Source of the DNA: a virus
Taxonomy: Duplodnaviria; Heunggongvirae; Uroviricota; Caudoviricetes
Virus record (IMG/VR): IMGVR_UViG_2740892233_000025
DNA: 9,631 nt
Direction: 5' to 3' (one strand)
Part shown: one piece after another, positions 7,092 through 9,631 of the stretch
Position numbering within the stretch: position 1 is the stretch's first letter
How the letters are laid out: the number at the start of each line of letters is the position of its first letter
Notes under the pieces: generated by a model
The model's input: the letters and a program-made list of their open reading frames with translations, nothing else
Database searches by the model: none
What the model was told of the DNA's origin: nothing
Program-made: the position numbers and the translations under genes

Positions 7092-7286
7092 ATGAGATAT
7101 GACGATGTTAAACCATGTCCGTTTTGTGGTTGTCCATCTGTTACAGTGAAAGCAATTTCAGGATATTACCGGGCAAAATGCAACGGATGCGAATCCCGAA
7201 CTGGCTATGGTGGAAGTGAAAAAGAAGCACTCGAAAGATGGAATAAACGAACTACTGGAAATAATAATGGAGGTGTTCATGTATAA
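7092..7286 (+). CDS. ralR: RalR (Lar), restriction-alleviation protein and type I toxin (DNase), 64 aa
   Basis: MRYDDVKPCPFCGCPSVTVKAISGYYRAKCNGCESRTGYGGSEKEALERWNKRTTGNNNGGVHV, a CxxC…CxxC zinc-ribbon protein at the Rac lar/ralR position. In-frame ATG at 7080 (MTKIMRYD…) is an alternative start. Confidence 0.78.
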   Translation: MRYDDVKPCPFCGCPSVTVKAISGYYRAKCNGCESRTGYGGSEKEALERWNKRTTGNNNGGVHV

Positions 7287-7467
7287 AATAACTGCCACTA
7301 TTGAAAAAGAAGGTGGCACTCCTACTAACTGGACAAGATATTCAAAATCTAAATTAACGAAATCAGAATGCGAAAAAATGCTCTCAGGGAAAAAAGAAGC
7401 AGGCGTGTCCAGAGAGCAGAAAGTAAAGCTGATAAATTTTAATTGCGAGAAACTTCTGTCCTCGTGA
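7279..7467 (+). CDS. Small hypothetical protein at the position of Rac ydaC (62 aa from ATG 7279)
   Basis: ORF 7207-7467. GGAGG at 7268-7272 precedes ATG 7279 (MYKITATIEKEGGTPTNWTRYSKSKL…). Overlaps the ralR stop by 8 nt in another frame. I do not recall the ydaC sequence, so the identity is positional only. Confidence 0.5.
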   Translation: MYKITATIEKEGGTPTNWTRYSKSKLTKSECEKMLSGKKEAGVSREQKVKLINFNCEKLLSS

Positions 7468-7551: not shown

Positions 7552-7573
7552 TCATATCGTAAGAGGTATGGCA

Positions 7574-7855
7574 ATGAATCTTGTGACACTCAAAACGTGG
7601 GGAAAACTCAGATATCCGGATAACCCACCATCAATATCAACGCTGAGACGATGGGCAAGGAATGGAAACATTTATCCTGCACCTGAACTACACGGGAGGA
7701 GTTACAGGGTGGTTCCGGAAGCTTTCTATATCAACCCAAATAAGGTTGATACCGATATAACACACCATCAGCCTAATGGGCGACAAGGGAGAGACAGTCC
7801 GTTACTGGAGAAGTTAAAACATGCAGCGGAAAAAATACGATCCCAATTTACCTAA
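7574..7855 (+). CDS. xis: Excisionase (Xis-like recombination directionality factor), 93 aa
   Basis: MNLVTLKTWGKLRYPDNPPSISTLRRWARNGNIYPAPELHGRSYRVVPEAFYI… resembles lambda Xis in its N-terminal half. AAGAGG at 7561-7566 sits 7 nt before ATG 7574 (ORF-track start 7568 is too close to the SD). The 3' end overlaps int by 35 nt, as in lambda. Confidence 0.7.
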   Translation: MNLVTLKTWGKLRYPDNPPSISTLRRWARNGNIYPAPELHGRSYRVVPEAFYINPNKVDTDITHHQPNGRQGRDSPLLEKLKHAAEKIRSQFT

Positions 7856-8897
7856 AAACTTAACATATCGAAGGAGGGACAAAGCATATTACTGGCGCAA
7901 CCCTCTGACGAAAGAAGAATTTACACTAGGTAAAATTTCAAGAAGAGATGCAGTAGCGCAGGCAATTGAAGCAAATCATTATATATACAAAAACTACTCT
8001 CCTGCTGCCTTAATTGAAAAACTAAAAGGGTTCGACTCATTTACTATGGCAGACTGGATTGAACGTTACAAAACGATTCTTATAAGGAGAAAAGTGTCCA
8101 GAAATACTTATAAAATTCGGGTAAATCAACTGGAGACAATAAAAGAAAAATTAGGAGGGGTTTTACTGACAGAAATAACCACTCGCCATATTGCCGAGTT
8201 TCTTGATTTGTGGATTGAAGGAGGGAAAAACACGATGGCAGGATCAATGCGTTCTGTGTTATCTGATATGTTCCGCGAGGCCATTGTTGAAGGACGTATA
8301 TCTCAAAATCCAGTAACGCCAACAAGAGCACCGAAAATAGTAGTTACAAGAGAACGGCTGAAACTAAAGACATACAACTGCATCAGGGAGGCAGCAGATC
8401 AACTTCCGACATGGTTCCCATTAGCTATGGACTTAGCCCTTGTAACAGGACAACGTCGCGAAGACATAACAAATATGCGGTTCAGTGAGATTTATGATGA
8501 TCGTCTCCACATCAGGCAAATTAAGACAGGAATGATGATTGCTATCCCCCTGTCACTCAGCCTTCCTGTCGCTGGTTTACGACTTGGTACAGTAGTTGAA
8601 CAGTGCCGCATGGTAAGTAGGGGGGATTATCTAATCAGTGCCGGGATTAGAAAAAACAGCCCTGACGGCAGCATTCACCCGGACGGCCTGACAAAGAAAT
8701 TTGTCGCAGCCAGAAAATTAACAGGTATCCAGTTCAGTGAAAACCCACCAACTTTTCACGAGATCAGAAGCCTGGCTGGACGATTGTACAAAGAAACATG
8801 TGGGGAAGAATTTGCTCAACGTCTACTTGGCCACACATCGGAGAAGACAACAAAAATGTATCTTGATGAGAGAGAAAAAACGTACTTACTGCTCTGA
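7821..8897 (+). CDS. int: Lambda-family tyrosine integrase, 358 aa
   Basis: Collinear with lambda Int as I recall it, e.g. [24 protein letters not shown] versus lambda LAMELAVVTGQRVGDLCEMKWSDI, and [19 protein letters not shown]…[18 protein letters not shown] versus lambda FEGDPPTFHELRSLSARLY…LLGHKSDTMASQYRDDRG. It is not the P4-type IntR of K-12 Rac. Confidence 0.9.
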
Positions 8898-8944
8898 TTT
8901 TAACGTAAATGGATTGTTAAATGTGTTTTGGTTGTGATATAACC

Positions 8945-9047
8945 AAAAAAGACCGGAATACAGAAATTCGAGTAAATTTCGAGTAATTTCGGGGAGACGT
9001 TTGCAACTAATTGATTTTAAATACAATTAAAAAAAGACCGAATACGA
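8945..9047. other. attL-like junction: P' arm with direct repeats plus a core that coincides with the sdsR 3' terminator
   Basis: ttcgagtaa repeated at 8967-8975 and 8978-8986 (11-bp phasing, candidate arm-type Int sites). Core candidate aaaaaaagaccgaatac at 9029-9045; a near-copy aaaaaagaccggaatacag at 8945-8963. Confidence 0.5.
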
Positions 9048-9131
9048 TTCCTGTATTCGGTCCAGGGAAATGGCTCTTGGGAGAGAGCCGTGCGCTAAAA
9101 GTTGGCATTAATGCAGGCTTAGTTGCCTTGC
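9029..9131 (-). ncRNA. sdsR: SdsR (RyeB) sRNA, sigma-S-dependent, about 103 nt
   Basis: Minus-strand sequence GCAAGGCAACUAAGCCUGCAUUAAUGCC…GACCGAAUACAGGAAUCGUAUUCGGUC plus U7 matches my recollection of E. coli SdsR. The terminator hairpin has a 10-bp perfect stem (9036-9045 / 9053-9062). A sigma-S-type -10 lies upstream and the expected neighbour yebY is adjacent. Confidence 0.7.
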
Positions 9132-9258
9132 CCTTTAAGAATAGATGACGACGCCAGGTTTTCCAGTTTGCGTGCAAAATGGTCAATAAAAAGCGTGGTG
9201 GTCATCAGCTGAAATGTTAAAAACCGCCCGTTCTGGTGAAAGAACTGAGGCGGTTTTT
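9034..9258 (+). ncRNA. ryeA: RyeA (SraC) sRNA, antisense to sdsR; 5' end uncertain
   Basis: In E. coli ryeA is transcribed opposite to and fully covers sdsR. The + strand terminator at 9224-9260 is the likely 3' end. A candidate promoter ttgcaa-N15-tacaat (9001-9027) lies on the prophage side of the core, so the 5' end may be phage-remodelled. Confidence 0.35.
9134..9170 (-). promoter_or_regulatory. sdsR promoter, sigma-S-type extended -10 (tctattcttaaa)
   Basis: Minus-strand tctattcttaaa at 9145-9134 resembles the sigma-S -10 consensus and sits directly upstream of the sdsR 5' end at 9131. Confidence 0.45.
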
Positions 9259-9260
9259 TT
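9224..9260. terminator. Bidirectional rho-independent terminator (ryeA on + strand, yebY on - strand)
   Basis: Interrupted hairpin ccgcc-c-gttct / agaac-tga-ggcgg flanked by an A-run (9219-9223) and T7 (9254-9260). Confidence 0.6.
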
Positions 9261-9289: not shown

Positions 9290-9631
9290 TTAACAGAGTT
9301 TTTCAGCTCGTTCTATAAACGGTGCCAGACTCATTTTTTCGCCGGGATTGTTAGGATCATCAATCTGAATCACCGAAATGGGTTGGGCTTTAGTCTTCCC
9401 ACTGGCAACTTCCTTTTGTGCGATATCGTTTAAAGGATACTGCACGAGGGTACTTGGGTTAATGACATACAAAGCATTACCCGGTCTGCAAGTCAGCATC
9501 ACCTCTTCGCGATTAAACGCCCATTTGTCTTTACCCACTTCAAAACGACTGACGGTAATCACCTGCGGTGCAGCCAGCGCCGCTGCAGAACTGGTGAGTA
9601 ACAGAAACGTCAGAATACTTTTTTTCATCAT
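9290..9631 (-). CDS. yebY: Small exported protein with N-terminal signal peptide and two Cys (YebY-like), 113 aa; host flanking gene
   Basis: [24 protein letters not shown]… is a clear Sec signal peptide. The size and the position next to sdsR/ryeA fit the E. coli pphA-sdsR-yebY arrangement. The symbol rests on that context and an imperfect recollection of the sequence. The start codon sits at the window edge. Confidence 0.6.

Follow-up and report, generated by a model that had tools for sequence, protein, structure and literature searches.

The window, by which we mean the whole 9,631-nucleotide stretch of DNA analyzed here, carries, towards its right end, an excisionase and an integrase gene followed by the bacterial gene yebY. 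Its final 932 bases are 100% identical to E. coli O103 RM8385. The rac/lambda-like prophage of RM8385 is ~55 kb long and extends from int to a point just short of pphA. In the annotation of that genome, a rac-like early region (kilR, recE, recT, ralR, xis, int) finishes with a tyrosine integrase beside yebY. The features discussed below are as follows, with positions given in the window.

~7092-7286: ralR coding sequence, per the RM8385 annotation
7285-7463, minus strand: RalA sRNA (Rfam RF02694, 219 bits), antisense to a DUF1187 gene
7568-7855, plus strand: xis, excisionase gene, overlapping the start of int (95-aa ORF; annotated as an excisionase in the identical RM8385 record)
7821-8897, plus strand: int, lambda-family tyrosine integrase of 358 aa with an N-terminal arm-binding domain (ORF)
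8945-8963, plus strand: near-copy of the core half-site, outermost element of the P′ arm (aaaaaagaccggaatacag; A-run at 8945-8950, GACCGGAATAC at 8951-8961)
8964-8994, plus strand: three arm-type direct repeats, predicted from sequence, equivalents of P′3-P′1
9004-9016, minus strand: predicted H′-like match to the IHF consensus (AATCAATTAGTTG = WATCAANNNNTTR; pattern match only)
9025-9260, plus strand: remainder of ryeA (sraC) without its promoter, up to a terminator at ~9222-9260 (Rfam RF00101 SraC_RyeA at 9025-9169, 179 bits)
9028-9054: att identity block of 27 bp, mapped by aligning attP and the empty site with the junctions at the two prophage ends (four-way alignment)
9029-9128, minus strand: sdsR (ryeB) sRNA gene (Rfam RF00111 SdsR_RyeB, full-length, 118.1 bits against a gathering score of 38)
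9036-9062: sdsR terminator hairpin (C′ half-site 9036-9045, phage-derived; loop 9046-9052; B half-site 9053-9062, bacterial)
9290-9631, minus strand: yebY, bacterial flank (ORF; annotated as yebY in RM8385 and in an MG1655 derivative)

The excisionase locus of RM8385 (18875-19156) corresponds to positions 7574-7855 of the window. Upstream of it, positions 7092-7463 hold the RalR/RalA type I toxin-antitoxin of rac-type prophages. The RM8385 prophage (L003, 26500-34850) also carries cargo genes, namely sodC, a gene for a Lom/Ail-family outer-membrane protein and, beside the pphA-side att, the type III effector gene nleG7. The integrase contains the domains PF09003, PF22022 and PF00589 (assigned on a 100%-identical cluster representative), which are the arm-binding N-domain, the central domain and the catalytic domain. 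It is 38% identical to lambda Int and 41% identical to HK022 Int (residues 9-355). Homologues with 60-74% identity are found across the Enterobacterales, including Salmonella, Citrobacter, Cronobacter, Serratia, Yersinia, Pantoea, Rahnella and others. The Yersinia homologues are 62-64% identical, and the Salmonella relatives, at 72-75%, are inserted at the same site. An Int that is 98% identical is encoded in PP818812.1 (L004), deposited as 'Actinobacillus phage vB_Apl-pPE4' (hereafter pPE4). The attP core of this phage matches the E. coli sdsR terminator, and going by its sequence, Actinobacillus looks doubtful as its host. The integrase of Salmonella phage ZC-S1_prp (OK490361.1, L005, a 19.6-kb record) is annotated in two pieces and gives a tblastn match in two segments; it is probably frameshifted in its record.

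A first-pass annotation of the window had placed the prophage end at the 3′ end of sdsR, with an att core of about 17 nt. Its coordinates and sequences proved exact when the window was re-read, and the placement holds. A matching core is present as a direct repeat at the distal prophage end, and comparison with the empty K-12 pphA-sdsR-yebY site puts the junction exactly where it had been predicted. The core, on the other hand, is longer than proposed. The block shared by attP, the two prophage junctions and the empty site measures 27 bp, spans the whole terminator loop and ends two bases into the right stem. The rows of the four-way alignment read ...AATTAAAAAAAGACCGAATACGATTCCTGTTTTCGTCAAC for attP, ...AATTAAAAAAAGACCGAATACGATTCCTGTATTCGGTCC for the int side, ...AGATAAAAAGAGACCGAACACGATTCCTGTTTTCGTCAAC for the pphA side and ...AGATAAAAAGAGACCGAACACGATTCCTGTATTCGGTCC for the K-12 attB. 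The pphA-side prophage end of RM8385 is ...ACAGATAAAAAGAGACCGAACACGATTCCTGT joined to TTTCGTCAAC..., the empty K-12 site is ...ACAGATAAAAAGAGACCGAACACGATTCCTGTATTCGGTCCAGG, and the unintegrated attP of PP818812.1 is ...ACAATTAAAAAAAGACCGAATACGATTCCTGTTTTCGTCAAC.... The core region consists of an A-run (9029-9035), GACCGAATAC (9036-9045), the loop GATTCCT (9046-9052) and GTATTCGGTC (9053-9062). The two 10-bp halves of the terminator stem form an inverted repeat around the 7-nt loop, which is the geometry expected of core-type sites.

The attP and K-12-type attB blocks are identical at 25/27 positions, the mismatches being at 9034 (phage A, host G) and 9043 (phage T, host C). Both positions carry the phage allele at the int-side junction and the host allele at the pphA-side junction, and on the int side the change to the host base comes at position 9055. 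Taken together, the four sequences show the textbook pattern of attP x attB recombination into attL and attR. Because the alleles switch between 9043 and 9055, strand exchange can be placed within ACGATTCCTGT (9044-9054), i.e., the 7-nt terminator loop and its edges. The int-proximal core of one other record (IMGVR_UViG_2690316318_000021; L063/L160) reads CCTGTTTTCGGTCC, with the phage T at the equivalent of 9055 followed by host GGTCC. This T does not agree with strand exchange confined to 9044-9054: either the crossover or heteroduplex reached further right there than in RM8385, or the host is polymorphic at that position.

From position 9028 rightwards, and only there, the window is common to all 5426 complete E. 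coli genomes; the int arm is present as well in 228 of the 5426, counting matches over at least 80% of the query. The phage-type allele AAAAAAGACCGAATACGATTCCTGTATTCGGTCC occurs in 268 complete E. coli genomes vs. the 228 with this int arm, and thus ~40 genomes may hold other, related elements at the same site. The ryeA/sdsR locus was named in the first-pass annotation as an insertion hot spot in Salmonella, and it is indeed documented as one: PMC7380047, citing Balbontin 2008, gives a phage att site as the last 23 bp of ryeB. The sdsR hot spot also features in Bobay 2013 (PMC3603311), and islands labelled '.RyeB' are reported in PMC10111431. We regard as probable an explanation that covers both this junction and the near-copy described below. 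Its first part is that positions 8898-9062 are the int-proximal junction (P′ arm-C′-overlap-B; attL in lambda terms) of a lambdoid prophage seated in the sdsR terminator hairpin and integrated by a heterobivalent lambda-family tyrosine integrase.

The last ~26 nt of sdsR overlap the att block. A terminator scan called an 11-pair hairpin with a T-run on the minus strand (9063-9035). The SdsR hairpin folds at -15.8 kcal/mol in the lysogen, which is the K-12 value, and folding of the free attP gave no hairpin comparable to the sdsR terminator. The U-run is longer in the lysogen, with 7 U vs. UCUUUUU in K-12. It had been suggested that the phage supplies or rebuilds this terminator. The alleles at 9034 and 9043 confirm that the phage-derived half rebuilds it, as they match attP and not the host copy kept at the distal end. 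Integration keeps sdsR intact, with the phage copy giving the 3′ half-stem and the 7-U tail.

RyeA in K-12 is a 272-nt RNA that encompasses sdsR, and its promoter fragment ends at sdsR +132, ~40 nt past the SdsR 3′ end (PMC6610125). Of the two junctions, only the one on the pphA side aligns with K-12 sequence leftward of the core. Thus, the native promoter and the first ~40 nt of RyeA now lie ~55 kb away, next to pphA. The first-pass annotation had raised the possibility that the phage replaces the ryeA promoter. The displacement of the native promoter to the pphA side stands, but the promoter scan and the conservation across arms yielded no convincing candidate for a replacement. The only sigma-70-like match, TTTGCA-16-TACAAT at 9000-9027, does not exceed chance expectation and lacks conservation. 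The 5′ end of Rfam RF00101 (AauUAAAAAaAGaCCGaauac) begins at the att core and is closer to the phage-type junction than to K-12 (AGATAAAAAGAGACCGAACAC); the model is thus confined to ryeA sequence rightwards of the insertion point. In K-12, pphA is made by read-through from the sdsR promoter (PMC6610125), and the prophage would therefore cut pphA off from that promoter. Lysogeny has been found to alter the 5′ end and expression of ryeA, with RyeA down and RyeB up in Salmonella carrying PhiW104 (Balbontin 2008, as cited in PMC7380047). For the prophage described here, we infer the consequences for sdsR, ryeA and pphA from the anatomy of the junction.

The direct repeats behind int had been noted as candidate arm-type sites. 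They are AAATTCGAG (8964-8972), AAATTTCGAG (8974-8983) and AATTTCGGGG (8985-8994), with a period of 10-11 bp. Their conserved position, lineage-dependent sequence and recurrence on the other arm all argue for the prediction. The unintegrated attP sequences have the repeats at -72/-61/-51 from the core in 7/9 cases and at -71/-60 in an eighth, and most of the nine have one or two copies in the same orientation on the P arm, at +133 to +154. The sequence of the repeat varies by Int lineage (..TTCGAG, ..TTCGGA(C), ..TTCGTG or ..TTCGAT). One P′ arm, in L162 (IMGVR_UViG_2921308868_000001), is one repeat longer and has four arm-type repeats (ATTTTCGTG x4). Between the arm repeats and the core, Salmonella-type (TAACCCATTGATT) and Serratia-type (AATCAACAACTTA) arms likewise match the IHF consensus, again as a pattern match only. 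As judged from these predicted sites, the phage carries a lambda-type attP of ~265 bp. At ~180 bp into its distal arm, RM8385 has a partial copy of the core, ATTCCTGTATT (L003, 35440-35462). This copy recurs in an IMG/VR attP (L054), is absent from pPE4 and is probably due to chance.

The outermost element of the P′ arm is the near-copy at 8945-8963. It is a direct repeat of the C′ half-site that lies outside the outermost arm repeat (8964), at an offset of 12-13 bp from it. The 11-mer AAAAAAGACCG has exactly two matches in the window (8945 and 9030) vs. 0.03 expected, and 0/200 shuffles reached two. We compared 159 places that contain the core; they comprise the window, three deposited phage genomes and IMG/VR contigs, some of the contigs having been fetched in both scans. 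In 157 of them a GACCG(N)AATA-like copy precedes the core at a distance of 82-87 bp (~8 helical turns). The diversity of attP was sampled from IMG/VR; a single-protein contig search gave two close loci only. A chance similarity in A/T-rich DNA has to be considered for so short a motif, and 10-mers with one mismatch do occur by chance in the window. Given that the exact 11-mer occurs at these two places only and that the copy is conserved family-wide at a fixed distance, the probability of chance is negligible.

The near-copy is present in the unintegrated attP of three deposited phage genomes, whose Int are 98%, 73% and 50% identical. The carriers with unintegrated attP are pPE4, ZC-S1_prp, Tbat2_3 and six IMG/VR contigs. 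Conservation was measured in 31 representatives (arms <88% identical to one another, with the deletion variant L031 left out). The mean majority fraction is 0.88 for the near-copy columns (entropy 0.47 bits), 0.78 for the arm-repeat columns (0.69 bits) and 0.57 for the columns of the spacer between arm and core (1.32 bits). Serratia/Yersinia-type phages have the near-copy directly 3′ of the int stop codon (CTG TAA AAGACCGAATAT CA AAATTCGAG). Thus, the near-copy marks the outer edge of attP. No equivalent was found on the P arm of the nine unintegrated attP.

The first-pass annotation had offered the near-copy as a possible remnant of a previous insertion into this hot spot. It would then be a degenerate att scar, and 8964-9028 would be leftover foreign DNA. 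The locus is documented for successive insertions in PMC7380047, and the copy is imperfect, the E. coli type having one extra G inside the motif. However, a scar should not already be within the unintegrated attP of deposited phages and IMG/VR contigs, nor should its spacing to the core stay fixed at 82-87 bp even where Int identity has fallen to 50%. A majority fraction of 0.88 vs. 0.57 in the adjacent spacer is not what neutral decay leaves behind. The supposed debris in 8964-9028 contains the IHF consensus as well as the arm repeats, copies of which are found on this phage's other arm too, and is therefore functional attP. A scar is hence highly unlikely. The presence of the near-copy in free attP, its fixed distance from the core and its conservation above that of its flanks indicate instead that it is a selected, integral component of the phage attP. 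This is the second part of the explanation that we consider probable as a whole.

The near-copy had also been put forward as a secondary site. It is unlikely to serve for crossover, as the adjoining loop-equivalent AGAAATT mismatches the core loop GATTCCT. A deletion between near-copy and core was found in L031 (IMGVR_UViG_2728369554_000022, about 2620-2660), which lacks 85 bp and reads ..ATAACCAAAAAAGACCGAATACGATTCC.... The deletion junction is inside the shared AAAAAAGACCG, and all three arm repeats and the IHF-consensus site are lost. Int-mediated recombination at the near-copy was rejected as the origin of L031, since the junction is within the shared 11-mer and the loop-equivalent bases mismatch the core loop. 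An L031-type junction is absent from all 5426 complete E. coli genomes. From its sequence L031 is a rare, homology-type deletion, and having lost the arm repeats and the IHF-consensus site, the prophage can presumably no longer excise. Near-copy and core form a direct repeat, and deletion of the whole P′ arm through it may be a side effect, with L031 the one case seen.

The conserved letters of the near-copy are identical to those of the C′/B half-sites, and its spacing is fixed with an IHF-type bend site in between. On these grounds we tentatively propose, at somewhat less than even probability, that Int binds the near-copy as one more core-type site, located where the P′ arm ends. It may hold the catalytic/core-binding part of a protomer whose N-domain occupies the adjacent arm site. 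Alternatively, it may nucleate the P′-arm intasome. Several observations speak against an Int site. The near-copy and core changed in parallel in one lineage only (L131/L136, A->G in both), the core changed alone in L028, L154 and L155, and a C/T difference follows phylogeny. Covariation with the core or the host half-site is inconsistent. The extra G of the E. coli type is perhaps intolerable in a strict half-site, and lambda is without such an element, hence there is no experimental precedent in the paradigm. A more far-reaching version is that the near-copy is a fifth functional core-type Int site (C′-like) and gives a widespread Enterobacterales clade a distinct attP architecture, with a role in intasome assembly or directionality and a built-in route to P′-arm deletion. 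This we view as possible, if rather doubtful.

The inconsistent covariation would also suit a near-copy bound not by Int but by another protein, for instance the phage excisionase or an architectural protein of the host, the likeness to the core being incidental or historical. Conservation and helical phasing point to a constraint at the DNA level without naming the protein. The conserved letters GACCG..ATA(C/T) are nevertheless those of the C′/B half-sites, and no IHF or Fis consensus is visible within the near-copy. The Xis sites of lambda attP are on the P arm instead. Binding of another protein is improbable.

The near-copy could also act as RNA. It lies in the int 3′ UTR, directly behind the int stop codon, and would be co-transcribed with int. 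A sib-like retroregulation could then couple the fate of the int mRNA to the integrated vs. free state, with the near-copy either competing with the left half of the core for the right half of the terminator or pairing with the SdsR 3′ end. The terminator scan called no intrinsic terminator between int and the core, and the hairpin downstream of int is strong only when integrated (-15.4 vs. -4.9 kcal/mol). An RNA element would, however, hardly explain the strict 82-87 bp spacing. There is no compensatory variation, as the near-copy varies while the core stays fixed. The A-run is missing from the near-copy of Tbat2_3, and the SdsR 3′ end is locked in a stable hairpin. Taken jointly, the two RNA versions are quite unlikely.

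Finally, the near-copy region might be the start of a rightward phage transcript that replaces the ryeA promoter, with TGATATAAC (8934-8942) as an extended -10 and the transcription start in the A-run. A TGnTATAAC-like sequence is found upstream of the near-copy in the E. coli and Salmonella-type arms, and the native ryeA promoter has moved to the other prophage end. Yet this upstream block is absent in the Serratia/Yersinia-type and Tbat2_3 phages, in which the int ORF abuts the near-copy. With the block missing there, and with no call by the promoter scan, TGATATAAC was rejected as a general extended -10. A promoter at this position is very improbable.

The attP described here, with an additional core-type site as our tentative reading of the near-copy, can be set beside that of lambda. 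The two have homologous Int proteins (38% identical) with the same three domains, and int and xis are arranged in the same way, reading towards the att site. Both have, on the int side, three tandem arm repeats at ~50-85 bp from the core, with further repeats at ~130-155 bp on the other arm, and an IHF consensus between the core and the P′ repeats (in the present case a consensus match) within an attP of ~265 bp overall. They differ in that the lambda core is in the gal-bio intergenic region, whereas the core here is in an sRNA terminator hairpin. The lambda int stop codon overlaps P′3 and no core-like half-site lies beyond it, unlike the extra one found here. The sequence CAATTTTGT beyond P′3 of lambda was considered as an analogue of the near-copy; it is inside the int ORF and in the wrong orientation, and so is not comparable.

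PhiW104 of Salmonella DT104 is similar in location. By the summary of Balbontin 2008 (J Bacteriol 190:4075) in PMC7380047, its att falls within the final ~23-27 bp of ryeB/sdsR, and insertion replaces the 5′ part of ryeA but spares the sRNA gene. The setting differs, as the host here is E. coli O103 and Int is ~73% identical to the Salmonella lineage. The junction also resembles integration at the 3′ ends of tRNA and tmRNA genes. In the Williams 2002 model, cited in PMC3603311, the crossover is likewise in a 7-nt loop with a symmetric stem, and a phage copy of the 3′ part of the gene regenerates the RNA gene. Here, in contrast, the target is the Rho-independent terminator of an Hfq-type sRNA, and the convergent antisense ryeA is disrupted. 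A prophage next to yebY has been reported independently in Yersinia enterocolitica BT 1A (vB_Yen_24-YE00064; PMC12653942). It likewise has a 27-bp att and lies between its integrase and yebY. The authors draw no link to sdsR, and the likeness is made here from their description.

A prophage in the sdsR terminator, with the sRNA 3′ end rebuilt and the ryeA promoter displaced, is already in the literature. Limited text searches of the literature turned up no report of an attP of this kind with an additional core-type site. What is new is a modest, small addition to the lambda attP scheme: an extra half-site, conserved throughout the family, that bounds the P′ arm on its outer side. If Int binds the near-copy, this attP would deviate from the lambda paradigm in a simple way. 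This int arm is found at sdsR in about 4% of complete E. coli genomes (228/5426), and its recognition is useful for annotation. The toxin-antitoxin-like pair SdsR/RyeA and the sdsR-pphA read-through unit would be rewired in these carriers, and the regulation known from K-12 should therefore not be assumed for them.
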